Shown here: piece by piece, positions 4,468 through 27,548 of the stretch
Layout: every line of letters starts with the position of its first letter
Position numbering within the stretch: the stretch's first letter is position 1
Assembly: GCA_964606165.1 (NCBI GenBank)
Contig: CAZSFQ010000006.1
Coordinates: forward strand, 3,035-67,034
From: an uncultured Mageeibacillus sp.
Lineage (GTDB): Bacteria > Bacillota > Clostridia > Saccharofermentanales > DTU023
DNA length: 64,000 bases
Reading direction: 5' to 3'
Position numbers and translations under genes: made by a program
The notes under the pieces: generated by a model
Told to the model about the DNA's origin: nothing
Database searches by the model: none
Seen by the model: the letters and a program-made list of their open reading frames with translations, nothing else

Positions 4468-5805
4468 ATGAAAACACGTCAATCCAACCAATCCGCCCTC
4501 GTTGTCACCTTTCTGGTCGCTCTTCTTGTCATAGGTGTCATGCATCTGCTTTTGCCTGAACAGGACCTTTCCGAGGACGAGGCGCGCGCCCTGGCCCGCT
4601 TCCCTGCCCTCTCCTACAGCGACGCGCGGTCGGGAAAGCAGGCGGCCAATATCGAAAAATGGTACAACGACCAGTTCCCCTTTCGCCAGGCTTTCATCCG
4701 CGCCGGCAAAAACTGGCGCAGCATCGCTTATCCTAACCTCAACACGGACGGAATGGCCATTTACCTTATGCCCGACGAGGAAGGCAGCCTGGTTCCCCAG
4801 GAGACCCTGCCGGCTGAGGTCACCGACCCTGTTACGACACCGGCAGGGGAGGAATCGGAAGGAACCGGCCCTTCACCCACGCAAGCTCTTGAGCCGCCCC
4901 CCCTGGAGCCGCTGGACGAGGTTGTGAACATGAAAACGCTCCTGATTGTCAATAAACGGGCCATGGAACGCTATTACGGAAACGAGACCAAGCTTAAGGC
5001 CTATGGGGAGCGCCTTAACAAGCTGAAGGAGAATCTGGGCAGCGGCAGGCAGCTCTACAGCATGATCGTGCCCACAGCCATCGAACTCTATGCGCCAGAA
5101 GAGTACCACTCAGGCTATTCATCCCAGAAACGATGCATTGGTATCGTCAACGAAGAGCTCGATCCTTCCATCCACGCCGTCAACGCCTACGATCAGCTCC
5201 TCTTTCACCGCGATCAATACATTTACTACCGGACCGACCATCACTGGACGGGACTGGGCGCCTATTACGCCTATGTCGCCTTCTGTGAATCGGCCGGCCT
5301 CCAGGCCGCGCGCCTGGAGGACATGGAGCACTACCAGATTGAGGGCGACTACCTGGGTTCGCTCTACCGCATTTCAAAAAGCGCGGTTTTGGAGGATAAT
5401 CCTGACACAACGGAAGGCTGGAAACCTGTTGCGGATTATAAGGCCACGGCCTGGGATAACAGTGAGATGACGGTCACTTACCAAACCCGTTTGAATGACG
5501 AAAGAATCAAGGGCAGCAACGCCTACCTCAACTTCTCCGGCGGCGACCGGGCCCTTTTGAAAATTGAAACGGATCATGGATCCGGACGAAAAATCCTGGT
5601 CGTCAAAGATTCTTTCGGCAATGCCTTTATCCCCTATCTGGCTAATAATTTTGACGAAATCCATGTGATTGACCCCCGCTATTACACGCGCCCCATGATT
5701 GCCCTGGTGGAAGAAAATGGCATCACCGATGTGCTGGTGATGAACTATATGTTCGGCACCTCCAACTCCACCTGGCTTGGGGGATTTGACCGGATCGCAA
5801 AATAG
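4468..5805 (+). CDS. DHHW family protein (AlgJ/DltD-like extracytoplasmic partner of the MBOAT)
   Basis: N-terminal TM anchor, the eponymous motif YYRTDHHWT, and an AGGTGA RBS. It lies immediately downstream of the MBOAT gene. Confidence 0.85.
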   Translation: MKTRQSNQSALVVTFLVALLVIGVMHLLLPEQDLSEDEARALARFPALSYSDARSGKQAANIEKWYNDQFPFRQAFIRAGKNWRSIAYPNLNTDGMAIYLMPDEEGSLVPQETLPAEVTDPVTTPAGEESEGTGPSPTQALEPPPLEPLDEVVNMKTLLIVNKRAMERYYGNETKLKAYGERLNKLKENLGSGRQLYSMIVPTAIELYAPEEYHSGYSSQKRCIGIVNEELDPSIHAVNAYDQLLFHRDQYIYYRTDHHWTGLGAYYAYVAFCESAGLQAARLEDMEHYQIEGDYLGSLYRISKSAVLEDNPDTTEGWKPVADYKATAWDNSEMTVTYQTRLNDERIKGSNAYLNFSGGDRALLKIETDHGSGRKILVVKDSFGNAFIPYLANNFDEIHVIDPRYYTRPMIALVEENGITDVLVMNYMFGTSNSTWLGGFDRIAK

Positions 5806-5850: not shown

Positions 5851-6342
5851 ATGACCATTACTTTTCCGGTGCTGCCAACCAACTACGAGGAGTTCGTGAC
5901 CCTGGCCGGGGACATGATGAAAAAACCTGAGGGCACAGCCGCCCTCCTTCTTGTCGCGCTCAAGCTCTACGTCAATGACCGGGATCTTGGCCTGGAAGTC
6001 CTGAACTTTCTTCACGGGCCGCGGCCCCTGTCAGTCCGCGACCAGCAGTTCATCCGCGACCGCATGATGGACAAGCCATACCTGCCTGATTCCTACTTCG
6101 CGGGCGCCCGGCCGGACAATAACTATACGCCAGATCAGCCCCTGATCATTGAGCTGATGCCCGATCCGGTCCCGGCCGAAAGCGAGGAGTTCAAAAAGGT
6201 TCGCCTGAATTCGTCAGGTGCCGACAGCCCGCGCCTTGTCACTTTGCGGCGCAAGGCATCCGGTGACGTCTGGTTTTTGTGGGATTACCCGGCCATCGTA
6301 ACGGGTATCCGGATTCCTGCCAAGGAGGATCCCTGGGCTTAA
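5851..6342 (+). CDS. conserved hypothetical protein (163 aa), last gene of the MBOAT/DHHW operon
   Basis: AAGGAG RBS, no TM helix or signal peptide, and no motif I can name. A terminator follows. Confidence 0.6.
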   Translation: MTITFPVLPTNYEEFVTLAGDMMKKPEGTAALLLVALKLYVNDRDLGLEVLNFLHGPRPLSVRDQQFIRDRMMDKPYLPDSYFAGARPDNNYTPDQPLIIELMPDPVPAESEEFKKVRLNSSGADSPRLVTLRRKASGDVWFLWDYPAIVTGIRIPAKEDPWA

Positions 6343-6364
6343 GCCCGCTCAAATAAACATGCCA

Positions 6365-7570
6365 TCAACCGCCTGCGGGCGGTTGTTTTTTGATCCGCGC
6401 CACACCGGACGCGGCGGCCGCGTCAAAAACGGCCCGCGCGACAATCTCCTTCAAACGCGGATCCACAGGCTCAGGTAAAATTCTTTCTGATGAAAGACTC
6501 CCGTCATCCGCCATGCCGGCTAAAGCCATGGCCGCCGCGTGCTTCATGGCGTCGTTGATATCGGATGCCCTGGCATCAAAGGCTCCCCTGAAAATGCCGG
6601 GAAAGGCAAGTACATTGTTGATCTGATTGGGGTAGTCAGACCGTCCCGTGGCGACAATGGCGGCACCGGCCGCCTTTGCCCTGGCCGGATCAATCTCAGG
6701 GTCGGGATTGGCGCATGCAAAAATGACGGGATCCCAGGCCATGGTCCGGATCATGGATTCGGTGATGACATCCGGGGCCGACAGGCCGATAAAGACGTCA
6801 GCCCCTCTCAGGGCGTCAGAAATGGTCGTCCGCGTCCCTCTTTTATTGGTCACAGCGGCCATCTTCTCCTTCTCCCGGTTCATGCCCGGCCGTCCCGGAT
6901 AAAGGGGCCCCTGACGGTCACAGATGACAAGGTCCTCTGCCCCCGCCTCCATAAGCAAACGGGCGACCGCGATGGACGCGGCGCCCGCCCCGCTGAATAC
7001 AATCCGCGACTGCCCCATGGTCCTGGCCGTCAATTTCAGGGCATTGACCAGGGCGGCAAGCACTACAACCGCTGTACCGTGCTGGTCGTCGTGAAAGACC
7101 GGGATGTCGCAGATCTCCTTCAGCCTTCTTTCAATTTCAAAACAGCGAGGCGCAGCGATATCCTCCAGGTTGATTCCGCCAAAACTTCCCGCCAGCAAGG
7201 CGATGGTCCGGACGATCTCGTCCGTATCCCTGGACCGGATGCAAAGGGGAAAGGCATCCACATCGCCAAAGGCCTTGAACAAGACGCATTTTCCCTCCAT
7301 GACCGGCATGGCGGCTTCGGGCCCGATGTCGCCCAGGCCCAGGACTGCCGACCCGTCCGTTACGACCAGGCACAGGTTCCAGCGGCGGGTCAGGTCATAG
7401 GACTTCATGGGGTCTGCCGCGATGGCAAGACAGGGCGCGGCAACCCCCGGCGTGTAGGCAATCGACAGATCTTCCTTTGATCTGACACTGACCCTGGAAA
7501 CCACTTCAATTTTCCCCCGCCAGCCGGCGTGCGCTTCCATGGCTTGTGTATCGTAACTGTGTTTTGTCAT
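6365..7570 (-). CDS. NAD(P)-dependent malic enzyme (short, roughly 400-aa type)
   Basis: YTPGVAAPC, VVTDGSAVLGLGDIGPEAAMPVMEGK and GINLEDIAAPRCFEIE are typical. I chose the ATG at 7570, which has a GAGGGG RBS. Confidence 0.9.
   Translation of the reverse strand: MTKHSYDTQAMEAHAGWRGKIEVVSRVSVRSKEDLSIAYTPGVAAPCLAIAADPMKSYDLTRRWNLCLVVTDGSAVLGLGDIGPEAAMPVMEGKCVLFKAFGDVDAFPLCIRSRDTDEIVRTIALLAGSFGGINLEDIAAPRCFEIERRLKEICDIPVFHDDQHGTAVVVLAALVNALKLTARTMGQSRIVFSGAGAASIAVARLLMEAGAEDLVICDRQGPLYPGRPGMNREKEKMAAVTNKRGTRTTISDALRGADVFIGLSAPDVITESMIRTMAWDPVIFACANPDPEIDPARAKAAGAAIVATGRSDYPNQINNVLAFPGIFRGAFDARASDINDAMKHAAAMALAGMADDGSLSSERILPEPVDPRLKEIVARAVFDAAAASGVARIKKQPPAGG
6367..6391 (+). terminator. rho-independent terminator of the MBOAT operon, embedded in the 3' end of the convergent malic enzyme gene
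   Basis: CAACCGCC tgcg GGCGGTTG followed by TTTTTT. Confidence 0.75.
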
Positions 7571-7651
7571 CGTCCTGGCCCCTCTTTTTTGTTCATTTTC
7601 CCGTCCGTTCTGATTGCGCGGCAAGACACGCTCATGGTAGCATAGGCACAG

Positions 7652-7691
7652 TTATAATAATTATGACTTTGTAATGATTACAAAGTCATAA
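7652..7691. promoter_or_regulatory. Fur-family (PerR-like) operator region with two 7-1-7 boxes, the second inside a 31-bp perfect palindrome
   Basis: Box 1 is TTATAATAATTATGA (7652-7666) and contains TATAAT. Box 2 is TTGTAATGATTACAA (7669-7683). It is the core of the palindrome TTATGACTTTGTAAT-G-ATTACAAAGTCATAA (7661-7691). The region lies about 60-100 nt upstream of prx. Confidence 0.65.
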
Positions 7692-7752
7692 AGGAAAGCT
7701 GCCCTCCCGTCAGGAGACCGGGCAGAAGAGGAAGAAGAAAGGAATATTAAAA

Positions 7753-8361
7753 ATGCCAATGGTCGGAAAACAAGCTCCCTTGTTTGAAGCAGCCGCTTAC
7801 CACAAGGGAAAGTTCACCAAGGTGAAACTGGAGGACTACAAAGGTCAATGGGTGATGCTGTGCTTCTACCCCGGCGACTTTACCTTTGTCTGAGCGACTG
7901 AGGTGTCTGCAGTTGCAGCCAGGTATGAAGAATTTGAGAAACTGGGCGTTCAGGTCCTGTCGATTTCTGTTGACAGCGAATTCGTCCACAAGATCTGGAA
8001 TGACGTTGAGCTGTCAAAAATCGCCGGCAAAGACGTCCCCTTCCCCATGCTGTCCGACTCCTCGGGCGCCGTCGGCGATCTCTACGGCGTCTACGACCGC
8101 GAAGCGGGCGTTAATGTCCGCGGCCGTTTCATCATCGATCCTGACGGCAAGATCCAGGCCATGGAAGTTCTGACCCCGCCGGTAGGCAGAAACGTCTCCG
8201 AGGCCATCCGTCAGATCAAGGCCTATCAGCTGGTCCGCGAAACAGGCGGCAAGGAAGTTACACCCTCAGGCTGGCAGGAAGGCGGCAAAACGCTCAAGCC
8301 CGGCATCGACCTTGTCGGAAAGATTGCGGATCACTGGACCATTGCCGACTCCTACAAGTGA
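7753..8361 (+). CDS. prxU: peroxiredoxin (AhpC/Prx1 type) with selenocysteine (TGA, codon 47) in place of the peroxidatic Cys
   Basis: From the ATG at 7753 the frame reads [63 protein letters not shown]... The TGA is at 7891-7893, where the family has FTFVCPTE. The same frame continues as ORF 7903..8361, which is Prx-like throughout. Confidence 0.8.
7898..7922 (+). promoter_or_regulatory. candidate bacterial SECIS hairpin
   Basis: Starting 5 nt after the UGA: lower stem CUG/CAG, then G-C, a bulged U, an upper stem CUGC/GCAG and an apical loop AGUU. The bulged U and the GU in the loop resemble the E. coli fdhF minimal SECIS. Confidence 0.5.
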
Positions 8362-8389
8362 GTTAAGGCGAAAAGAAGGAAGCCGGCAC

Positions 8390-8803
8390 GTGAGCTACCG
8401 GACGGTCGAATTGCTGAGAGGGCACGGGATTAATCCTTCAAGCCAAAGGGTGCATATATACCATTACCTGACGGCCTCCAAGGAACACCCGACCGTTGAT
8501 GACATCTACGCAAAACTGCAAAAAGACGGTCATCTCTTCTCACGGGCAACCGTGTATAACACGGTTAACCTTTTTCTCGAAAAAGGCCTGATCCGCACCG
8601 TCCAGACGGAAGCGCATGAGATGCGATATGACGCTTCACCGGGTTTCCACGCGCACTTCAAATGTGAGTCATGTGGCCTTATTTTGGATATGCCAATGCA
8701 GGAGCCGCGGCCGGATGAGGTTGGCAGCCTGAAGATTTGCCGGACAAACGTCGTCTTCAGCGGCCTGTGCGGCCAATGCCAAAAGAAGGAACACAAGGAA
8801 TGA
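8390..8803 (+). CDS. perR: Fur family transcriptional regulator, PerR-like
   Basis: HPTVDDIY, SRATVYNTVNLF, FHAHFKCESCG and a C-terminal CGQC. GTG start at 8390 with an AAGGAAG RBS. Co-directional with prx, 28 nt downstream. Confidence 0.8.
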   Translation: MSYRTVELLRGHGINPSSQRVHIYHYLTASKEHPTVDDIYAKLQKDGHLFSRATVYNTVNLFLEKGLIRTVQTEAHEMRYDASPGFHAHFKCESCGLILDMPMQEPRPDEVGSLKICRTNVVFSGLCGQCQKKEHKE

Positions 8804-8826
8804 CGGAAGCTTATTGCTTTGTTTAT

Positions 8827-8859
8827 CCCCGGCCGCTTCCCGCGGCCGGGGATTTTTTT
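8827..8859 (+). terminator. rho-independent terminator of the prx-perR operon
   Basis: CCCCGGCCGC ttccc GCGGCCGGGG followed by ATTTTTTT. It overlaps the stop codon of the convergent gene. Confidence 0.8.
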
Positions 8860-10333
8860 AGCGTTGCCCCAGCGGTTCCCCCAGGCTGATCCTGCCGTCC
8901 CGCCTGGTCGGGGGAATCTTATTCTTGCGAAAATACTCGATGATATTGTCCTGGGCGGAGGTACTGACCACGCGTACACGGCCCTTGTCAGCCAATTCCT
9001 CATGGGTTATTCCCAATGTTTCAGCGACGATGCCATAGTGGTAATCCTGCATGGCGATCCGGTATTGGGTATCCTTGCCCGGCGGTTTTCCGTCAATGAG
9101 GATCCTGGTGACATCACCGTCCCCGCCGACCTCCAGGCGCAGTTCAGCGTTCCACTGATAAAACTCACGCGAACCTTCTTTGTAAAGGGTCCTCATCAGA
9201 TGTCTCAGCATACGCTCCAGAACCTGGCCGGTGACAGAAAAACTGATCATGGCCTCATCGTATGGGTAAAGCTCCATCAAATCAGACCGGGTTACCAGGC
9301 GTGACAGTATGGGCTTGCGGATGGAGCCTGAGGCGATCAAAACGATATCGACCCCCAGCTGGAATCGGAGAATATCCGAAAACAGATTGCCGAGTTCCGT
9401 TTCGCGGAAGCGGTCCGCGTGTTCCATCTCGTGCGGCAGCCGGCAGATCACCGTATTATATTTGCCATCGACTTCCTCCTGATACTTGGACAGGAGCTCG
9501 TCCATGACCGGATCGGCCGGGCAATGCGTGTCGTCGATAGGAACCGCCTGCCAGGAAAATTCGTGGACGGAGTTGGTGTCCATGTTGATGATCAAGTCGT
9601 AACGCCCGATGAAGTCGGTTCCCGACCCTACCTGGGCGATCAGGATATCATTGACGCGCTCGGGCTCTTCCAGCATGGTGTGGCTGTGTCCGCCGATGAT
9701 GAGATCCACGCCGATTTCCGGCGGCAGGAGGGCGGCCAGTTTCTTGTCCTGCTCGAAGCCGATATGGGTTAAAAGAACGGTCAGGTCAATGTCGACGTCC
9801 TTGTAGCTGTTGCAGATGTACTCGACCTCTTCCGCGGCGTCCTCAATACTGATGAAGGTGCCGACCAGTGGTTCGCTCTTGCTTTTGGCGATCACTTCCT
9901 CGGTGACAATCCCGATAAAAAGTATTCTGATGCCGTCTGTTTCAATGATGTGATAGGGCTTGAAAAGATTGGCGCCCGTTGGTTTGATGTAGAGATTGGC
10001 GTTGACGATGGGGAAGTTGGCACAGCGCTCAAGAAACATGAGATGGGGAAAGCCGTAATCCGTCTCGTGGTTGCCCAGGGTCACCACATCAGGTTCCAGC
10101 ATATTCATAACCAGTATGGTGGAAATCCCCCTGTACTCCTGATCGATGATGGATCCCTGGAGCATGTCACCCGAGATGACGTAGAGCACCGGGTCGGTCT
10201 CCTCCTCCCTGACCTTGTGAACATAACCTGAAAGCCTGCTCATGCCGCCGACCATCTTGTCACGTGTTTCCCTGGCGAAGAAGTCGCCATGCATGTCATT
10301 CGAGTGCAGCAGCACCATGCGTCGAAGATCCAT
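8858..10333 (-). CDS. bifunctional metallophosphatase/5'-nucleotidase family protein (no signal peptide seen)
   Basis: LLHSNDMHGDF, GNHETDYG and GGHSHT calcineurin-like motifs plus a 5'-nucleotidase C-terminal domain. ATG at 10333 with a GGGAGG RBS. Confidence 0.85.
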   Translation of the reverse strand: MDLRRMVLLHSNDMHGDFFARETRDKMVGGMSRLSGYVHKVREEETDPVLYVISGDMLQGSIIDQEYRGISTILVMNMLEPDVVTLGNHETDYGFPHLMFLERCANFPIVNANLYIKPTGANLFKPYHIIETDGIRILFIGIVTEEVIAKSKSEPLVGTFISIEDAAEEVEYICNSYKDVDIDLTVLLTHIGFEQDKKLAALLPPEIGVDLIIGGHSHTMLEEPERVNDILIAQVGSGTDFIGRYDLIINMDTNSVHEFSWQAVPIDDTHCPADPVMDELLSKYQEEVDGKYNTVICRLPHEMEHADRFRETELGNLFSDILRFQLGVDIVLIASGSIRKPILSRLVTRSDLMELYPYDEAMISFSVTGQVLERMLRHLMRTLYKEGSREFYQWNAELRLEVGGDGDVTRILIDGKPPGKDTQYRIAMQDYHYGIVAETLGITHEELADKGRVRVVSTSAQDNIIEYFRKNKIPPTRRDGRISLGEPLGQR

Positions 10334-10479
10334 CCATACCTCCCGGAAAGGCCAGCCACTCACACACCGGCCTGCCCTTCAATCCTACAAAATATAGCAT
10401 AAAAAGTGAGTTCATGTGGCCTCAGATGGGCAGTTTGACGACTGGATAAAAATCAATCGATAAATTTTGACTGAATGGA

Positions 10480-10507
10480 TTGACAATCCAAAATCGTTAT
10501 TTATAAT
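10480..10507 (+). promoter_or_regulatory. strong sigma-A promoter candidate for the lipoprotein/apbE operon
   Basis: TTGACA (10480-10485), a 16-nt spacer, then TATAAT (10502-10507). Confidence 0.65.
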
Positions 10508-10552
10508 GGATACGTGGCAAAATCATGTCATAATTTTGGAGGAGGAAATCCT

Positions 10553-11548
10553 ATGAAAAAAATAATCGTTTTGGCCCTTGTCGCAGTCCTGGCTTTTGGG
10601 CTGGTCGCATGCAGCAAGAAGCCCGAGGCAGTTAAAACAGGCTTTGGGGTCAGCTTCAGCAACTACAATTCAAAAGACGTTGACGAGGGCGCGAATGGCA
10701 AGGTCGATACACAGGCCTACGCCGCCGGTGTCATGGTCGACAAGGACGGCAAGGTAGTCAAGTGCACCATCGATGCCATGATGTCCGTCTTTGACTTCAA
10801 TGAGGAAGAAATCCTGACCGGACCCGAAACCGTTTTCAAAACCAAGAATGAGCTCGGTGACGATTACGGCATGAGAAAAGCCTCGCCGATTGGAAAAGAG
10901 TGGAATGAACAGGCCGCCGCCTTCGCGGAATATTGTGTTGGCAAGACAGCGGCCGAGATCGAAAAAATCGCCGTTTCAGATGACGGCAAGGCCACCGACG
11001 CAGACCTGGCTTCTTCTGTCACCGTTCCGGTGAAGGGCTACCAGACTCCTGTCCTCCTGGCCATCGCCAACGCCGTTGACCTGGGCGCCAAGGCCACCGA
11101 TAAGCTGGGTCTCGGCATCGTCGGGACCGGCGAGCAAACCGTGGTCAAGGGAGAAGAAGACAAACCCGCGACCGCTGTCGCTTACAACTTCTATTGTGTC
11201 CTGACACTGAACGCCGATGGCAAGATCAGCTCCTGCTACTACGATGCTTCCCAGGGCAAGTTCAAGGTGGAAGACGGCAAGATCACAACTGATCTGATGG
11301 CTGAAATCAAAACCAAGAACGCGCTGGGTGACGACTATGGCATGAGGAAAGCATCCCCGATCGAGAAGGAATGGGACGAGCAGGCCGATGCCTTCGCCAA
11401 GTACGTGACCGGCAAGACTGTCAGCGACGTCACCGGAATGGCCCTCAAGCAAGGTGCTCCTGACGTTGCGGATCTGGCTTCCAGCTGCACCATGCATGTG
11501 ACCGATATGATCACTGCCCTCGAAAAGGCAGCCGCAACAGCCAAGTAG
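10553..11548 (+). CDS. lipoprotein with two tandem FMN-binding-like domains (PplA-like; putative ApbE substrate)
   Basis: Lipobox LVAC after MKKIIVLALVAVLAFG, with a GGAGGAGG RBS. There is an internal duplication: FKTKNELGDDYGMRKASPIGKEWNEQAAAFAEY versus IKTKNALGDDYGMRKASPIEKEWDEQADAFAKY. Each repeat ends in D-L-A-S-S-(V/C)-T. Confidence 0.55.
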   Translation: MKKIIVLALVAVLAFGLVACSKKPEAVKTGFGVSFSNYNSKDVDEGANGKVDTQAYAAGVMVDKDGKVVKCTIDAMMSVFDFNEEEILTGPETVFKTKNELGDDYGMRKASPIGKEWNEQAAAFAEYCVGKTAAEIEKIAVSDDGKATDADLASSVTVPVKGYQTPVLLAIANAVDLGAKATDKLGLGIVGTGEQTVVKGEEDKPATAVAYNFYCVLTLNADGKISSCYYDASQGKFKVEDGKITTDLMAEIKTKNALGDDYGMRKASPIEKEWDEQADAFAKYVTGKTVSDVTGMALKQGAPDVADLASSCTMHVTDMITALEKAAATAK

Positions 11549-11572
11549 TCAAGCAGGTCGAAAGGACCGATT

Positions 11573-11607
11573 CAAACAGGCTGTTTCTCTCTTGAAACAG
11601 CCTGTTT
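11573..11607 (+). terminator. hairpin between the lipoprotein gene and apbE (attenuator or partial terminator candidate)
   Basis: CAAACAGGCTGTTTC tctct tGAAACAGCCTGTTT(CC). The U tail is short, so termination is probably incomplete. Confidence 0.4.
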
Positions 11608-11635
11608 CCGTGTCTGTAACGGATCGGAGTCAAGC

Positions 11636-12697
11636 ATGAAACGAAACATCCTTTTGGCGGCAGCCCTGCTCCTTTCCCTGATCCTTGTGACCGCCTGCCT
11701 CCCCGGGGGAAAACAGAATCAGGGCCCCCACAAATTCGAAGCCGAATTCATCGGTCTATTTGACACCCTGACCAGGGTCATGGGCTACGCCGAAAATGAA
11801 GAGGATTTTAAAGCGGTGGTTCAGGGACTCAAGGACGACCTGGAAGTCTACCACCGCCTCTACGATATCTATGATTCCTATCCTGATCTGGTCAACATCA
11901 AGACTGTTAACAGCATGGCCGGCCAGGGCCCGGTCGCCGTGGACCGGAAGATTATCGACCTTCTCCTCTACTCAAAGGACGCTTACCAGCTGACAGAGGG
12001 CCGGGTCAACATTGCCCTGGGAGCTGTGACGAAAATCTGGCACCGCTATCGCAGTGAGGGGGTGGATGACCCGGCGTCGGCACGCCTGCCCAAAATGGAG
12101 CTCCTCGAGGAAGCGGCCCTTCACACCCGTATGGACAATCTGCTTATTGATCCTGTTAAGGGGACCGTTGAGCTGAAAGATCCGAAGATGAGCCTGGACG
12201 TTGGCGCCATCGCCAAAGGATACGCGGTGGAACAGGCCGCGCGGGCGGCCGAGGAGAGGGGTGTCAAGCATCTTCTAATTTCTGTCGGCGGCAATGTCCG
12301 CGCCATCGGCGCCCGCAATGACCAGGGCGAACCCTGGCGTGTCGGCATCGAAAATCCTGACTACGCCGCAGATGACTACCTGGCCATCGTCAAGGCCGAC
12401 GCCGTATCGGTGGTGACCAGCGGCGTCTATGAACGCTTCTATATGGTCGGGGGTAAATCCTACCACCACATCATCGACCCCGATACCCTTTTCCCCGAAA
12501 ACAGGTACCTGTCCGTCTCCATCGTCACGCCCGACTCGGGACTTGCCGATGTCCTGTCAACAGCGCTTTTCAATCTGGATCTGGAAGAAGGGAAAAAACT
12601 CATCGGGAGTATCGAGGGGACTGAGGCGCTCTGGTGCATGCCGGACGGCAGCCTGGTCGAAAGCGATGGATTTGCTGACTTAACAATATTGGACTAG
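11636..12697 (+). CDS. apbE: FAD:protein FMN transferase (ApbE/FmnB family), lipoprotein
   Basis: Lipobox LVTAC, plus the ApbE motifs FDPTIG-like region, DVGAIAKGYA and HHIIDP. Confidence 0.9.
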   Translation: MKRNILLAAALLLSLILVTACLPGGKQNQGPHKFEAEFIGLFDTLTRVMGYAENEEDFKAVVQGLKDDLEVYHRLYDIYDSYPDLVNIKTVNSMAGQGPVAVDRKIIDLLLYSKDAYQLTEGRVNIALGAVTKIWHRYRSEGVDDPASARLPKMELLEEAALHTRMDNLLIDPVKGTVELKDPKMSLDVGAIAKGYAVEQAARAAEERGVKHLLISVGGNVRAIGARNDQGEPWRVGIENPDYAADDYLAIVKADAVSVVTSGVYERFYMVGGKSYHHIIDPDTLFPENRYLSVSIVTPDSGLADVLSTALFNLDLEEGKKLIGSIEGTEALWCMPDGSLVESDGFADLTILD

Positions 12698-13248
12698 CCG
12701 GCCCCCTCCTCCCGGTAGAGGGCTGGGAGGCGGGCCAGGTTGCGGATAACCGGACCGGCGGCCGCCCCGGTCAGGATGCCGGTCAAAAGCCCTGTGATGA
12801 GCAGGGGGGGCAAATAGGTCACCAACAACAGGGGTTCTCTCATAACCAGGCTGGCCACCGACACCTGCCCCAGATTGTGTGCCGCCGCGCCGGCCATGCT
12901 GATGCCGATCACGGAAAGCGACCTGCCCTCCAGAAAAGTTAAAAGCCACATGACCAGGAGGGCCAGCAGCCCGCCGCCCAATGAGAAAAGCATGGTGGTG
13001 ATGCCGGTAATGGCGCTCATGATCATGATGCGCACGAGCAGTATGGTAACCGCGTCGGTGACCTGCAAGCGCATCAGGGCCACCAGGGTCACGATGTTGG
13101 CAAGTCCCAGCTTCAAACCGGGCACAGGGACGATCAGTTCCAGGGGAATCCAGCGTTCCACGATAGCCAGCACCAGGGCCAGGGAGACCAGCATGGCGTC
13201 CAGGGTCAAACGGCGAAGACGTCTTCTTTGCGCTTCTCTCTTACTCAC
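12694..13248 (-). CDS. Gx transmembrane family protein (Hpre_diP_synt_I / ECF S-component-like)
   Basis: Multi-TM protein with LDAMLVSLALVLAIVERWIP...PGLKLGLANIVTL, typical of this family. It overlaps the NusG-II gene by 4 nt. Confidence 0.75.
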   Translation of the reverse strand: MSKREAQRRRLRRLTLDAMLVSLALVLAIVERWIPLELIVPVPGLKLGLANIVTLVALMRLQVTDAVTILLVRIMIMSAITGITTMLFSLGGGLLALLVMWLLTFLEGRSLSVIGISMAGAAAHNLGQVSVASLVMREPLLLVTYLPPLLITGLLTGILTGAAAGPVIRNLARLPALYREEGAG

Positions 13249-13658
13249 CGGATCACCACATCGACATCGCCGCCCGCTTGCAGGTCACCAGTGGCCTTGA
13301 GGATGACACCACCCGGAACGCAGGCGGCGATCGATCCCCGTTTTCCCACCCAGCCGGACTGGACGCATACCTTGTCGGGGCAGTCCGCGTCGGCAAAGCG
13401 TATCCTCCCTCCACCCCATTCAAGATGGTAGTGAAAGCCGCCGAGCTCAATTTCTTGTTCCCCGTCCCTTTGCAAATCGTCGGCATTCCAAACTTGGACC
13501 AGCTGGCCTTCATGGGTGAGGACGACCGAGCCTGCATCCGACCGGCTGGCAAAAGCGGTCAGGCCAAAGAGGCCGGCGGCCAATACCAGAATGGCTGCCG
13601 CCACGACCAGGTCTCCCCAACGAAAGGTGTGATACCACCGCGGATGATGCCGGCTCAT
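13245..13658 (-). CDS. NusG domain II-containing membrane-anchored protein
   Basis: N-terminal TM anchor, then FADADCPDKVCVQSGWVGKRGSIAACVPGGVIL, characteristic of solo NusG_II proteins. AAGGAG RBS. Confidence 0.75.
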   Translation of the reverse strand: MSRHHPRWYHTFRWGDLVVAAAILVLAAGLFGLTAFASRSDAGSVVLTHEGQLVQVWNADDLQRDGEQEIELGGFHYHLEWGGGRIRFADADCPDKVCVQSGWVGKRGSIAACVPGGVILKATGDLQAGGDVDVVIR

Positions 13659-13741: not shown

Positions 13742-14644
13742 GTGTACCATCTTATTTCTCTATTGACGGGCGTTCTCCTGTCCATCATGATCCTGATCAA
13801 CGGCCGGCTGACAGAACACATCGGCCTTTTTCAAGCGACCGCCATCATTCACCTGGTAGGTGTTGTTTTCTCCCTGGCCGCCTCTTTGATACGAAAAGAA
13901 AAGCCGCTCCCCCGCACACATTCGCCCTGGTGGTTCTACCTGGGAGGCGTAATCGGTGTCTACACGGCTGTTGCCAACAACTTCGCCTTCGGCAGGATCA
14001 CCATGACCAGCATCGTCGCCCTGGGCCTGCTCGGCCAGACCTTAACCTCCCTTATTGTCGACGCGACCGGCTGGATGGGCATGACCCGCCGTCCTTTTCG
14101 CAAATCGACCCTGGCCGGCCTTATTTTCTGTTTCGCCGGAATCGCCGTCATGCTCGACCATTCCATCCTGGAAGCCGTCCTCGCCGTCTGGCTGTCTTTA
14201 GGGACGGGGATCTCCATCGTTGTGTCCCGCTCCATCAATGCCCGCCTGGCCGAGCGGATCGGTCCTCTTCCCGGATCCTTCGTCAACCACTTGACCGGAT
14301 TGCCCGTCACAGTGGTCCTGGTTCTTCTGACAGTGAATAAACTGCCGGCCGTCACTTATCCGGCCGGCAAAGAGTCATGGGTTTATCTGGGCGGAGTGCT
14401 CGGTGTTTGTGGCGTCATGCTCTTTAATATCCTGGTCCCCAAGATCTCGCAGTTCCACCTGACGGTCCTGTCCTTTGTCGGCCAGGTCCTGGCCGGCGTC
14501 CTGATCGATCTTCTGACCGGGGATTTTGCGGCGGACGCTTCTTTCTGGGGCGGCCTGCTGATCACGGCCGGAATTGCGCTCAACCTGGCCATCGAATACC
14601 AGGCCCACCGCAAGGCCAGGTCAGAAGGCGAACCAGTCAGTTGA
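13742..14644 (+). CDS. DMT superfamily transporter (duplicated DUF606/YdcZ-like)
   Basis: About ten predicted TM segments in two similar halves. GTG start with a GGGAGG RBS. Confidence 0.7.
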   Translation: MYHLISLLTGVLLSIMILINGRLTEHIGLFQATAIIHLVGVVFSLAASLIRKEKPLPRTHSPWWFYLGGVIGVYTAVANNFAFGRITMTSIVALGLLGQTLTSLIVDATGWMGMTRRPFRKSTLAGLIFCFAGIAVMLDHSILEAVLAVWLSLGTGISIVVSRSINARLAERIGPLPGSFVNHLTGLPVTVVLVLLTVNKLPAVTYPAGKESWVYLGGVLGVCGVMLFNILVPKISQFHLTVLSFVGQVLAGVLIDLLTGDFAADASFWGGLLITAGIALNLAIEYQAHRKARSEGEPVS

Positions 14645-23943: not shown

Positions 23944-24972
23944 TTATGGCGCCGGGACAGCCAGCGAAAGGTCTTTTGCCCAGCAAAAGTCGATTGGTGT
24001 GTTCCCTTTGGCACGCTTGTAAGCCTTTTCCTGGTGAGCCCTGCTGACAAGATCCTTTGTTTTAATTGTTCCCACTTGGCTAAAGACCTGATCCAGGACT
24101 TCAACTTCCGATCGCGCCAGTTCTTTGACCTGGAAATCCGATTGAGTTTTGAACCGGAATCCCAGATTTTCACCGACTGGGGCTATTTCATAATGCACAC
24201 CTTCCAGCTTGACAATGCAATCGTATTTTTCCGGAGCCGGCCCCATGGGCAGCGCACTGTAAACCAGACCGCTGATCGCTCTTCCTTTGTACTTGTAATG
24301 AAGCATATCTGAGTACCAAAGCATTTTCATAAGCCTGACTGTGTACAGGTATTTCGTTTTCTTCGCAAGGTAGTTGATCATTTCAACCACTTTGCTCAAA
24401 TCCAGATCCACCCCGCCCCTGATGGCTTCATCTTGAAATCCCGCATAATGAGCTTCGATCGAGGTGGTCAAATACCAGTTCTCCTTTTTCGAGAAGGCCT
24501 TCATCGCGTTCTCAAGGTACTTCCCGTATGCCCTTTCCGTGATCTTGTGCCTGGATTTTTCCAGTACCTCCATAAACCACTTGGGATCCTCAGCAATTTT
24601 TCTCAAGATGGCGTCATGCGCGACATCTTGTACCTGGTGGTTTTCATAGCGGGTAATGGTTGCTTTCCCCCAGTCAAGCAGGTCGGAAAAATCTTTCTGG
24701 CTGATTCCATATTGCTTTCGAATCCTGATGATGTCGCCCGAGGTCAGCAAAGCTCTCTTCTCCCTGTAGGCATCTTTCATGGCCAGATCGTTGGCCTTGA
24801 TCAGGTCTTCTGTTTCAAGCAGATTGTCGGTATGGGGGCAATACTCGTAAGTTGGCGCAAACTCCACCTCTTCACCTTTAAAAGTTACAGTTTCGGGCAA
24901 ACGGACCCTTTGAACATCATGCTCTTCCATACAGTCGAAGCAAAACTTTCTTACTGTTTCCAGAATCTCCAT
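23944..24972 (-). CDS. fusion of an MqsA/YgiT-like zinc ribbon, an XRE-type HTH and a Panacea (DUF4065/SocA) domain; antitoxin-like
   Basis: N-terminus: CFDC...(28 aa)...YCPH, then LTSGDIIRIRKQYGISQKDFSDLLDWGKATITRYENHQ (HTH). C-terminus: LMKMLWYSDMLHYKYKGRAISGLVYSALPMGPAPEKYD...LVSRAHQEKAYKRA (Panacea-like). G+C is clearly lower than in the flanks. Confidence 0.75.
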   Translation of the reverse strand: MEILETVRKFCFDCMEEHDVQRVRLPETVTFKGEEVEFAPTYEYCPHTDNLLETEDLIKANDLAMKDAYREKRALLTSGDIIRIRKQYGISQKDFSDLLDWGKATITRYENHQVQDVAHDAILRKIAEDPKWFMEVLEKSRHKITERAYGKYLENAMKAFSKKENWYLTTSIEAHYAGFQDEAIRGGVDLDLSKVVEMINYLAKKTKYLYTVRLMKMLWYSDMLHYKYKGRAISGLVYSALPMGPAPEKYDCIVKLEGVHYEIAPVGENLGFRFKTQSDFQVKELARSEVEVLDQVFSQVGTIKTKDLVSRAHQEKAYKRAKGNTPIDFCWAKDLSLAVPAP

Positions 24973-25035
24973 TTTCCCGCCTTTCTCTCACGATCCGTAA
25001 GGAAAAGTACTTTTGCCAAAAGGATACTCAGCAAA

Positions 25036-25096
25036 ATCCTAGCACTTGTGATTGAAATAAGTCAAGATTTTCGGTATCAATTGATACCGAAAATCT
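25036..25096 (-). promoter_or_regulatory. promoter candidate plus 32-bp perfect palindrome (putative operator) upstream of the Panacea-domain gene
   Basis: The palindrome AGATTTTCGGTATCAATTGATACCGAAAATCT spans 25065-25096. On the minus strand it abuts TTGACT (25060-25065), followed by 18 nt and TAGGAT (25036-25041). Confidence 0.5.
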
Positions 25097-25171
25097 GTTG
25101 CGCGCCAGAACCTATCGCGTATTGGTGTAGGTGAATCAAGTTGAGGACAGCCGGGAACAGGCCATCGATTC

Positions 25172-25729
25172 CTACCGATTCCGGTAGTCCTCCGCCAAAA
25201 TCGCGTAGTAACAGGCGTCCGCAAACACATCCGGCTTGTAGATGGCCTGGCGGTGCAGTCCTTCATATTCCATACCGCACTTTTTCATGACATCTCCTGA
25301 GTGGACGTTGGCCGGCTCATGGCAGGACTCAATCCGGTTGGCGCCGACCTCATCAAAGAAGAAACGGATCAGTCCGGCCAGGGCTTCCGACACGTAGCCC
25401 TGATGCCACCAGGGTTTGCCGATACAGTAACCGATGTTAACCATGCGGATGTTCTCACGGCCTTCAACCGAGCCGATGCTGCCGATCAGGGTATTGCCCT
25501 CTTTGAGCTCAATCGCCCAGTTGTAGTAGTTTTTGAAATCGTAGCTGTTCACCCAGGTCCGAAGAATCTCCCTGGTCACTCCAAGATCCGCGTGCGGCTC
25601 CCAGGACAGGTATTTTGTCACTTCGGGATCATTGGCCCAGTTACTGAACATGGCCGGGGCGTCATCGAGAGTGAAACGGCGAAGAACCAGCCTGTCGGTT
25701 TCAAGCCTTACGGTGCCTTTATGTACCAT
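25172..25729 (-). CDS. GNAT family N-acetyltransferase (RimJ/RimL-like)
   Basis: LETDRLVLRRFTLDDAPAMFSNWANDPEVTKYL, and WWHQGYVSEALAGLIRFFFDEVGANRIE. Confidence 0.85.
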   Translation of the reverse strand: MVHKGTVRLETDRLVLRRFTLDDAPAMFSNWANDPEVTKYLSWEPHADLGVTREILRTWVNSYDFKNYYNWAIELKEGNTLIGSIGSVEGRENIRMVNIGYCIGKPWWHQGYVSEALAGLIRFFFDEVGANRIESCHEPANVHSGDVMKKCGMEYEGLHRQAIYKPDVFADACYYAILAEDYRNR

Positions 25730-25832
25730 ATTCCCTTCTCCCTCACCTTTTAATATCTCATGTTATCATTGATTGTTAGCGCATTCGCGGTGACTGACAG
25801 CTTTCAGTCACCCTTTATTATAGGAGCAGAAA

Positions 25833-27548
25833 ATGAGTCGAAAGAAAAAAGAAGAAATAGAAAGCACAAGCAAGAAAAATACTGGACAAAAATTACGTGT
25901 CATTCCGCTCGGCGGCATGCGCGAAATAGGGAAAAACATGACCGTCTTTGAATACGGTGATGACCTGATCGTCATCGACTGCGGCATGGCCTTTCCTGAT
26001 ACCAGGATGCCTGGCATCGATATCATCATCCCGGACTTTCACTACCTTCGGGAGAACCGCGACAAGATTCGCGGGATTCTGATCACGCACGGCCACGAAG
26101 ACCATATCGGGGCCCTGCCCTGGCTTTTAAAGGAATTCGATGTCCCCGTCTACGCGACGCCCATGACCATGAAGCTGATCGAGATCAAACTCGAGAATAC
26201 GCGTCCCAAAGTGGAAAGCAAAAAGCTCCAGGTCGTACGGGCCGGCGATTCACTTTCAATCGGGGCTTTTGGGATTGAGTTTATCCATGTCAACCATTCG
26301 ATCGCGGACGCGGTCTCCATCGCCCTGACGACACCCGTGGGAACCGTCTTTTTTACAGGGGACTTCAAGATCGACTACACACCGACCACGGTGGATCCCA
26401 TCGATCTGGGGAAAATCGCGGAGATCGGCAACCGCGGCGTCCTGGCCCTCATCTCCGAGAGCACCAACGCCGAGCGGCCGGGACACTCCCTGTCGGAAAG
26501 GGAGGTCGGCAAGGCCTTCAAGGATATCTTCTCCGAAGCCGCGGGCCGAATCATAGTAGCCACCTTCTCGTCCAATGTCTTCCGCTTGCAGCAGGTCATC
26601 TCAACAGCCGAGTCATTCGGCCGCAAGGTACTGATCCTGGGGCGGAGCATGCTCAATGTCTTTGAAGCGGCAAACAGCCTGGGCTATCTTTCCTACCAGC
26701 CGTCCACCATCATGGATATCCAAAGCATCGACAGCTTTCCCGCGGAAGAAATCGTCATCCTGGCGACCGGAAGCCAGGGTGAACCCATGTCAGCCCTTTC
26801 GAGGCTGGCCTATTCGGAACACCGCAGCACGGAAATCATGGAAGGCGACACGGTAATCCTGTCGTCCAGCATGATCCCCGGCAACGAAGAGGCCATCTAC
26901 CGGGTCGTCAACGAGCTCTTCATGAAAGGGGCCCAGGTAATCTACGAATCGCTATCGGAAGTCCACGCCTCAGGCCACGCCTGCCAGGATGAGTTGAAGC
27001 AGATCCTGACCCTGACAAAGCCCCGCTATTTTATCCCCTCGCACGGCGAATTCCGCATGCTCTACCGGCACGCGGAGCTGGCCAGCAAGATGGGGATTCC
27101 CAATGAGCGGATTGTGCTTTCGAAAAACGGCGAGATCCTCGAATTTTCGGAAGACGGCAGCCTGAACTTCACCGGCTATACCGAGGGAGCCGGTATCCTG
27201 ATCGACGGGTCGGGCATGGGCGACGTTGACGAGTACGTACTGAACGACCGTCTCCGTCTGGCGGATGAAGGCGTCGTTTCGGTCACCATCGTCATCGATG
27301 CCCAGGCCAACCGCCTCTACGGCGACCCTGTCGTTCAGGCCAAGGGCTTCATCTACGAAAGTGAGATGAAGCACGTCATTGAACTTTGTCAGGAGCGGGT
27401 CAAGGAAATCGCCGGCGAATTGTGGAGCAAGAAAAAACCGCTGGGCGCTCACATGACATCGGATGACATGAAAGACAAGATCCAAAAGACCCTCTTCGAA
27501 CTGACAAGAAGAAGGCCGGTCGTCATGGTGGCTGTCGTCGCCATTTGA
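25833..27548 (+). CDS. rnj: ribonuclease J
   Basis: Beta-CASP metallo-beta-lactamase: ITHGHEDHIGALPW, and SGHACQDELK. Confidence 0.95.
   Translation: MSRKKKEEIESTSKKNTGQKLRVIPLGGMREIGKNMTVFEYGDDLIVIDCGMAFPDTRMPGIDIIIPDFHYLRENRDKIRGILITHGHEDHIGALPWLLKEFDVPVYATPMTMKLIEIKLENTRPKVESKKLQVVRAGDSLSIGAFGIEFIHVNHSIADAVSIALTTPVGTVFFTGDFKIDYTPTTVDPIDLGKIAEIGNRGVLALISESTNAERPGHSLSEREVGKAFKDIFSEAAGRIIVATFSSNVFRLQQVISTAESFGRKVLILGRSMLNVFEAANSLGYLSYQPSTIMDIQSIDSFPAEEIVILATGSQGEPMSALSRLAYSEHRSTEIMEGDTVILSSSMIPGNEEAIYRVVNELFMKGAQVIYESLSEVHASGHACQDELKQILTLTKPRYFIPSHGEFRMLYRHAELASKMGIPNERIVLSKNGEILEFSEDGSLNFTGYTEGAGILIDGSGMGDVDEYVLNDRLRLADEGVVSVTIVIDAQANRLYGDPVVQAKGFIYESEMKHVIELCQERVKEIAGELWSKKKPLGAHMTSDDMKDKIQKTLFELTRRRPVVMVAVVAI

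Follow-up and report, generated by a model that had tools for sequence, protein, structure and literature searches.

A region of four genes at positions 10480-13658 of a 64-kb window, the window being the whole stretch of DNA that was analysed (64,000 nucleotides from an uncultured Mageeibacillus sp.), is probably a reduced locus for flavin-based extracellular electron transfer (FLEET), a self-contained module that would make a flavinylated two-domain surface lipoprotein. The system as such is known: it is FLEET, with flavinylation by ApbE and with export of flavin adenine dinucleotide (FAD) mediated by EetAB, and the lipoprotein's domains probably belong to a class, FMN-bind2, of which brief mention has been made in print. 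What is new is a family-wide non-canonical motif at the putative acceptor site for flavin mononucleotide (FMN), a stripped-down locus without electron input, and a lipoprotein family that is invisible to Pfam, NCBIfam and motif screens, yet is the most consistent apbE neighbour in these Clostridia. An earlier note, made from the letters of the window, had read the region as an extracytosolic flavinylation module mirroring the PplA-FmnB pair, and that reading has gained support from conserved synteny, from the FLEET-type operon of related species, from a motif in register with the flavinylation site of FMN-binding domains and from the grading of that motif into SGAT. Coordinates are positions in the window, and the four genes, all of them intact, comprise the following features.

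10480..10507, + strand: sigma-70-type promoter, TTGACA-16 nt-TATAAT, 12/12 consensus matches
10541..10545, + strand: ribosome-binding site (RBS) GGAGG, 7 nt 5' of ATG 10553, by direct reading
10553..11548, + strand: PplA-like lipoprotein, 331 amino acids (aa), an open reading frame (ORF) with a signal peptide and lipobox LVAC, then two FMN-bind2-like domains
10625..11089, + strand: lipoprotein domain 1, ~155 aa, helices preceded by three long beta strands
11003..11023, + strand: motif 1, D-L-A-S-S-V-T, putative FMN acceptor Thr157 (codon 11021-11023)
11090..11545, + strand: lipoprotein domain 2, ~152 aa, from the tandem-domain comparison
11471..11491, + strand: motif 2, D-L-A-S-S-C-T, putative FMN acceptor Thr313 (codon 11489-11491)
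11636..12697, + strand: ApbE/FmnB-type FAD:protein FMN transferase, lipoprotein with lipobox VTAC (PF02424)
12694..13248, - strand: EetB homologue, Hpre_diP_synt_I 'Gx transporter', resembling the S-component of energy-coupling factor (ECF) transporters (PF07456)
13245..13658, - strand: EetA homologue, membrane-anchored NusG_II protein (PF07009)

The listed ORF of the lipoprotein starts at GTG 10514, which is located at the predicted transcription start and is improbable as the true start. The N-terminal signal is MKKIIVLALVAVLAFGLVAC, with the lipobox Cys encoded at 10610-10612, and the two domains that follow are 38% identical over 149 aligned residues; at the DNA level a repeat core of 91 nt (10836-10926 and 11307-11397, spaced by 471 nt) is 80% identical. 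ApbE scored 227.9 bits against PF02424 (Pfam cut-off 25.6, E=2.1e-67), and its nearest solved relatives were T. pallidum Ftp 4XDT (4.6e-36) and 7ESA (1.2e-33), the latter of which we take to be Listeria monocytogenes FmnB; with the further relatives 4IFU and 1VRM these span E ~1e-36 to 1e-30. A lipobox in its N-terminus (MKRNILLAAALLLSLILVTAC), read by eye, places the protein outside the cytosol, and by family match and signal it is a predicted extracytosolic member of the FAD:protein FMN transferase family. The convergent apbE and Gx genes overlap by 4 nt, CTAG at 12694-12697 being common to both stop codons, and the stop of the NusG_II gene overlaps the start of the Gx gene in GTGA (13245-13248), an arrangement by which the first is predicted to be translationally coupled to the second. 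This layout agrees with the earlier note, which had described a strong promoter ahead of a lipoprotein of two tandem domains of about 150 aa with repeat cores, the two motifs at their Thr codons, a lipoprotein ApbE after it and, convergent with apbE, a coupled pair made up of a membrane-anchored NusG-domain-II protein and a Gx-transmembrane protein.

We propose that EetB would bind cytosolic FAD and, together with EetA and with housekeeping ECF T and A subunits encoded elsewhere, would export it. On the outer face FAD would be split by the lipoprotein ApbE, and its FMN part would be placed in phosphoester linkage on Thr157 and Thr313 of the neighbouring lipid-anchored lipoprotein. Both residues lie in a motif of relaxed form, [D/E]-L-x-[S/A]-S-[V/C]-T. 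The lipoprotein would consist of two divergent FMN-bind2-type domains forming a pseudo-symmetric pair, and would take the role of PplA, carrying electrons outside the cytosol by means of two flavins. The sequence comparisons establish the identities of the genes, their synteny, a homology in which the motifs are in register, and purifying selection; that FMN is covalently attached, that the protein transfers electrons, which way these flow and which proteins are its partners is what we infer in this scheme.

The FLEET locus of L. monocytogenes was reportedly described by Light et al. in 2018. Its genes are pplA, fmnB (apbE), eetA, eetB, ndh2, dmkA, dmkB and fmnA (PMC9973259). The window resembles it in that a lipoprotein with two acceptor domains adjoins a lipoprotein ApbE and in that an EetA/EetB pair is present. 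It differs in having no ndh2, dmkA, dmkB or ECF-T (FmnA), in the inversion of eetA/eetB, which are convergent with apbE, and in the lipoprotein itself, which is unmatched by Pfam FMN_bind and has S-S-V/C-T in the place of S-G-A-T.

Linkage to ApbE and to the EetA/EetB pair

The lipoprotein family was compared across 80 loci from different species, mostly Clostridia metagenome-assembled genomes (MAGs) together with Ruminiclostridium, Acetivibrio, Anaerocolumna, Mobilitalea and others, whose ORFs were searched with the window proteins and clustered; 74 of these loci had enough DNA for neighbours to be judged. ApbE was the next downstream same-strand gene after the lipoprotein in 69 of the 74, and the NusG_II-Gx pair lay directly 5' of the lipoprotein in 38 of them, an outcome that favours the earlier note, which had proposed co-occurrence of the genes as a check. 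Over all 80 loci, Gx was found in 51 and NusG_II in 46, while an NDH-2 (Pyr_redox_2) of 660-790 residues with a C-terminal membrane domain was encoded upstream in 56, a polyprenyl synthase in 55 and a UbiA prenyltransferase in 56. The commonest operon (32 loci) reads ndh2-polyprenyl_synt-UbiA-NusG_II-Gx-lipoprotein-ApbE. The FLEET loci of Listeria and Enterococcus contain pplA, eetAB, ndh2/3 and dmkAB (PMC9864754), and judged by gene content the commonest operon belongs to the Listeria type of FLEET locus, its pplA being replaced by the gene of this lipoprotein.

The NusG_II/Gx pair is, by its family matches, EetA/EetB. The Gx protein scored 130.5 bits against PF07456 (Pfam cut-off 30, E=6.7e-38), the family used for defining eetB homologues (Rivera-Lugo et al. 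2023, PMC9973259), and the NusG_II protein, which has an N-terminal transmembrane segment (LVVAAAILVLAAGLFGLTAFA), scored 63.9 bits against PF07009 (cut-off 29.6, E=1.7e-17), whose genes carry the label EetA in Data Set S1 of that study (PMC9973259). The earlier note was therefore wrong in stating that the window is devoid of EetA/B genes. Its suggestion that the pair might move flavin across the membrane for ApbE was sound, and is not new, because the pair is EetA/EetB and FAD export by EetAB has already been published (PMC9973259). EetB is needed for flavinylation of PplA and acts in FAD export (PMC9973259), and it has been summarised as FAD-binding and as the proposed substrate-binding component of an ECF exporter (PMC9864754); deletion of eetA in L. 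monocytogenes gave no phenotype in extracellular electron transfer (EET) (PMC9973259). In the published survey eetB lies close to eetA in 3,328 genomes and close to apbE in 2,169 (PMC9973259), and in the window it adjoins the NusG_II gene and is convergent with apbE. ECF-T adjoins eetB in merely 291 of 4,214 genomes (PMC9973259).

The lipoprotein family is also found with a different redox system. In locus L081 (6063-12824) the genes for NusG_II and EetB precede that for P0136, a member of 655 aa with four domains, and apbE comes next; rnfC, rnfD and an rnfG-like gene with an FMN_bind domain follow directly, and the other strand carries a QueT-family gene close by. This is the Rnf-linked eetA-eetB-X-apbE block, in which the four-domain member is X and from which the window differs in having no Rnf genes; the published analysis of the block left the X gene unnamed. 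Another locus, L083, likewise has a four-domain member and then ApbE. The position of the lipoprotein gene between eetB and apbE whatever the redox system, be it NDH-2 with quinone genes, Rnf (L081) or, in the window, none, would also suit a protein that binds flavin non-covalently, as an FAD receiver or chaperone between EetAB and ApbE or as a flavin scavenger, and that is neither an ApbE substrate nor an electron carrier. We regard this, the main rival reading, as unlikely, since most of the 80 loci offer ApbE no second soluble candidate substrate at a distance of up to 10 kb. L015 does have such a candidate: directly 3' of ApbE (4701-5426) is a lipoprotein with two Pfam FMN_bind domains and the motif DAVSGAT, its ORF cut by the contig end. 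Here a canonical FMN_bind lipoprotein stands beside a family member, so that a single operon encodes candidate substrates of either kind, which speaks for the non-covalent alternative.

The NDH-2-like neighbour was considered as another substrate. In the related operons these proteins combine Pyr_redox_2 with a membrane domain of weak DoxD/DoxX/MauE-like similarity, and they have an Ala/Gly/Ser/Thr-rich loop between membrane segments. Of 51 full-length copies, 11 carry one or two canonical D-x-x-[ST]GA[ST] motifs in this loop, DGASGAT and DAVSGAT among them, at the following places.

L004, 5946-7994: NDH-2 copy with loop motif
L006, 4712-6868: NDH-2 copy with loop motif
L011, 4075-6156: NDH-2 copy with loop motif
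L016, 4875-6977: NDH-2 copy with loop motif
L026, 5729-7942: NDH-2 copy with loop motif
L028, 4513-6888: NDH-2 copy with loop motif
L029, 4552-6762: NDH-2 copy with loop motif
L036, 5049-7112: NDH-2 copy with loop motif
L038, 4973-7036: NDH-2 copy with loop motif
L041, 157-2229: NDH-2 copy with loop motif
L072, 5539-7737: NDH-2 copy with loop motif

These motifs may mark a directly flavinylated NADH dehydrogenase or may have arisen by chance in a low-complexity stretch. NDH-2 was rejected as the main ApbE substrate, as it cannot explain the conserved linkage when so small a share of the copies carries the motif and the loop is of low complexity.

The putative acceptor motif and its domain

The consensus flavinylation motif is D-x-x-[S/T]-G-A-[S/T]. 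Both motifs of the lipoprotein retain D, S and T and have S-V or S-C for G-A. Motif statistics were drawn from 324 domains of proteins at most 50% identical to each other; over 316 domains the acceptor was T (292) or S (23) in 315, with a single exception. Position -6 is D or E, position -5 is L and position -3 is A, S or T. The commonest residue at position -2 is S (184), ahead of G (78) and T (26), and at position -1 it is V (186), ahead of C (83) and A (32). Some family members have SGAT or AGAT at the exact acceptor site and, as aligned, the family motif grades into canonical SGAT. Among 186 close homologues, site 1 is Thr in 183 and Ser in 3, and site 2 is Thr in 182 and Ser in 4. We consider covalent flavinylation of S-S-V-T to be likely, and it is the most economical explanation because the acceptor position nearly always bears a hydroxyl group, the motif of the family shades into SGAT and the linkage to ApbE is tight. 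Replacement of the canonical G-A pair counts in favour of non-covalent flavin binding; however, the near-invariance of Thr/Ser at the acceptor-aligned position, together with SGAT in some members, fits a residue that is modified. In the fumarate reductase of K. pneumoniae, single G-to-A and A-to-V substitutions each leave ~50% flavinylation, and D-to-A has a minor effect (PMC12052999). The literature that was searched contained no account of FMN-bind2 proteins with ApbE motifs that depart from the canonical form.

That the domain is related to FMN-binding domains is indicated by profile comparisons. A profile built from a single-domain alignment of the lipoprotein family (A2) retrieved two chains alone from the PDB with hmmsearch, both of them FMN-binding domains: 2KZX, the best match (E=9.6e-4), and 8P2B ('FMN4 domain 1', E=0.2). 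In the alignment with 2KZX, TDAISGATIKV lies opposite DLASSVTVHV; a pattern of Y-x-M...E-W-x-E-Q-A...Y-x-V-x-K is shared, the motif and the C-terminal helix are in register, and the aligned 2KZX fragment is above the Pfam FMN_bind threshold. 2KZX, an uncharacterised protein of 131 residues, has canonical S-G-A-T, whereas the lipoprotein is below every Pfam threshold. The profile of all 324 domains, compared with an FMN_bind alignment by hhalign, gave a probability of 83.8% (P=7.9e-6) over 106 collinear columns with Asp, Ser and the acceptor Thr all in register, against a maximum of 1.6% in 30 column-shuffled controls; the FMN_bind alignment was small, because word-indexed searches with the 2KZX fragment and with the L015 FMN_bind domain gave 1 and 10 proteins respectively. 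Two members carrying SGAT or AGAT have sub-threshold FMN_bind matches across the whole Pfam profile, and one member (P0157) has an extra canonical FMN_bind domain. At the level of profiles, then, the lipoprotein domain is a remote homologue of FMN_bind with its motif in register.

Its closest described counterpart is FMN-bind2, a domain of ~160 aa found by BLAST, occurring in two or four copies as pseudo-symmetric pairs and exemplified by NTW96865.1 of an Erysipelotrichaceae bacterium, which is without an InterPro entry (Huang, Meheust, Barquera and Light 2024, mSystems, PMC11334425). AlphaFold2 modelled the whole lipoprotein with a predicted local distance difference test (pLDDT) of 94.2 and a predicted template modelling score (pTM) of 0.88, and a single domain with a pLDDT of 95.2. 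In the model, beta1 is separated from beta2, and beta3 from the first helix, by additional segments, and the motif is placed directly before the last helix. The lipoprotein is like FMN-bind2 in its domains of ~155 aa, in mostly even copy numbers within the family, in the inter-strand extra segments and in paired packing, to which the pTM of the two-domain model points; it is unlike FMN-bind2 as published in its non-canonical motifs, of which PMC11334425 makes no mention. Membership of the FMN-bind2 class is probable and not proven, because the likeness to NTW96865.1 is one of description and not of sequence; cluster look-ups of ten family members did not return that exemplar.

The family is large. 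The lipoprotein has the same sequence (100% identity) as P0001, a hypothetical protein of 331 aa from a Clostridiaceae MAG, where it bears the name GX819_02055, and a word-indexed search gave more than 2,100 relatives, all of them unnamed, with one stray PF00541 on P0016 as the sole Pfam record among them. An exhaustive profile search of 1.84 billion cluster representatives gave 1,902 clusters at E<=0.001, of which 729 were at E<=1e-30. Among the best 147 representatives, 133 have two domain copies, 10 have four, 2 have six and 2 have three. The six-domain members, P0132 (991 aa) and P0139 (983 aa), are candidates for long multi-flavin chains.

A number of results weigh against a flavinylated carrier, or fail to support it, and need to be set beside these. 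In the hmmscan that the earlier note had proposed, ApbE, Hpre_diP_synt_I and NusG_II were matched, and FMN_bind (PF04205) was not, with no match at E<=1 for the whole lipoprotein or at E<=10 for its single domains. Neither the lipoprotein nor either domain gave anything above a Pfam threshold (SPASM and DUF5640 appeared as noise below it) or any NCBIfam match, and phmmer of the whole protein against the PDB returned chance matches alone. The similarity to FMN_bind was detected at the profile level only. Foldseek against the PDB gave no match at E<=0.001 and no FMN_bind structure among the matches listed; 2KZX was not among the 50 listed for the single-domain model, for which the top matches were IscU (E ~0.03, TM-score 0.39-0.46), and the two-domain model gave nothing at E<=0.001 against viral structures. 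The fold comparison, which the earlier note had named as a refuting check, thus gave no decision either way. The motif of the lipoprotein has both G and A changed, to S-V or S-C, while the published substitutions are single. One family member, in L082, has no ApbE within 7 kb. In the 64-kb window, Pfam scans found no ECF-T or ECF-A subunit among the large ORFs, and tblastn with Pfam scans of large ORFs found no electron donor or quinone genes; the ECF-T and ECF-A partners are presumably encoded elsewhere in the genome. The IscU match was set aside and not taken as homology, because of its E of ~0.03 and a TM-score below 0.5.

One explanation for the silence of the family models and of the fold search, with its weak IscU-like matches, and for a similarity confined to profiles, is that the domain has drifted away from flavin chemistry, the protein now being a surface lipoprotein with another ligand or a structural role and its co-transcription with ApbE being unrelated or historical. 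We think this quite improbable, as the linkage to ApbE and EetAB is tight across ~70 species and reaches relatives of less than 50% identity, and as a conserved motif that shades into SGAT stands in register with the site of flavinylation. A flavinylated carrier remains the reading that we favour.

Missing electron-input genes in the window lineage

The nearest relatives of the window are loci L001 (85% identity), L002 (64%) and L004 (53%). L002 and L004 have the same inverted eetB-eetA arrangement and have kept ndh2-polyprenyl_synt-UbiA upstream; in L004 this block lies between a 5'-nucleotidase gene and the lipoprotein gene, whereas in the window and in L001 the 5'-nucleotidase gene abuts the lipoprotein gene. 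The site of the missing block compares as follows.

10364-10552, window: site of the missing ndh2 block
5863-9997, L004: corresponding segment
3-3342, L002: corresponding segment

No ndh2, UbiA, polyprenyl synthase or Rnf gene was found in the 64-kb window by tblastn. The absence of Ndh2, Rnf and Nqr genes from the window, as stated in the earlier note, was borne out by tblastn and by scanning the remaining large ORFs with Pfam; these were mostly housekeeping genes (ruvAB, relA, recJ, RNase J, tRNA synthetases and uvrC). It looks as though a lineage-specific deletion of ~4 kb took ndh2, the polyprenyl synthase gene and UbiA from the window and L001, with the lipoprotein gene remaining behind a consensus promoter. 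On this comparison the window lineage has lost its electron donor secondarily, and the lack is not a feature of the family; with ndh2 and the two quinone genes deleted, the carrier would therefore be reduced by something encoded elsewhere.

Another possibility is that the module in the window is a decaying remnant, its four genes left without purpose by the deletion. The three genes are indeed absent from the window and L001 where the same place is occupied in L002 and L004, and there is no redox partner anywhere in the 64 kb. However, all four ORFs are intact, the promoter is at perfect consensus and the RBS is strong, and the ratio of non-synonymous to synonymous substitution rates (dN/dS) between the window and L001, which likewise is without the three genes, is 0.15 for the lipoprotein and for ApbE alike. 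The retained genes are under purifying selection. They are not decaying, given this dN/dS and a promoter and RBS at consensus, and the remnant explanation, which we rejected on these grounds, appears very improbable. Genes for flavin export, transfer and carriage that were kept after loss of the NADH dehydrogenase and quinone genes amount to a natural experiment, and their retention suggests that the carrier either draws its electrons from a different source or has a role beyond the classical FLEET chain.

Several other features of the window were recorded. Just 5' of the 5'-nucleotidase gene, a Fur-family regulator ORF (8312-8803) begins within an ORF for an AhpC/TSA peroxiredoxin (7903-8361), and the two could be a PerR-type oxidative-stress pair beside the flavin module. 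Divergent from eetA is a DMT/YdcZ-family membrane protein gene (13742-14644), which also adjoins the module in L002 and was found in 1 of the 80 loci only. Further away, a protein with HTH_3 and SocA/Panacea antitoxin-like domains is encoded at 23944-24972, and the stretch 24001-26000 has a GC content of 0.484 against 0.53-0.61 elsewhere, the sole markedly low-GC segment of the window; this segment may be a small mobile or toxin-antitoxin insertion.

Implications for ApbE substrates

Substrates of ApbE are currently found through FMN_bind, DUF2271, DUF3570 or similar families together with an [S/T]GA[S/T] motif. The lipoprotein family fails on both counts, having neither a family match nor the motif, and screens by [S/T]GA[S/T] or by Pfam FMN_bind are expected to miss it. 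Even so, no gene is linked more tightly to apbE and eetAB in many Clostridia, and most of the related loci compared here have it at the place of PplA in a FLEET-type operon. We lean, with some reserve, towards the view that the ApbE proteins of Clostridia routinely flavinylate [D/E]-L-x-[S/A]-[S/G]-[V/C/A]-T on an unannotated FMN-bind2 family of ~1,900 clusters at 50% identity. If S-S-V-T is flavinylated, the recognised ApbE motif must be widened, surveys of EET among anaerobic-digester and gut Firmicutes need a new profile, and alternative tag sequences become available for flavin-tagging applications. If the wider view is true, it would explain part of the 'orphan ApbE' problem, and extracytosolic flavoproteins would prove to have been substantially under-counted.

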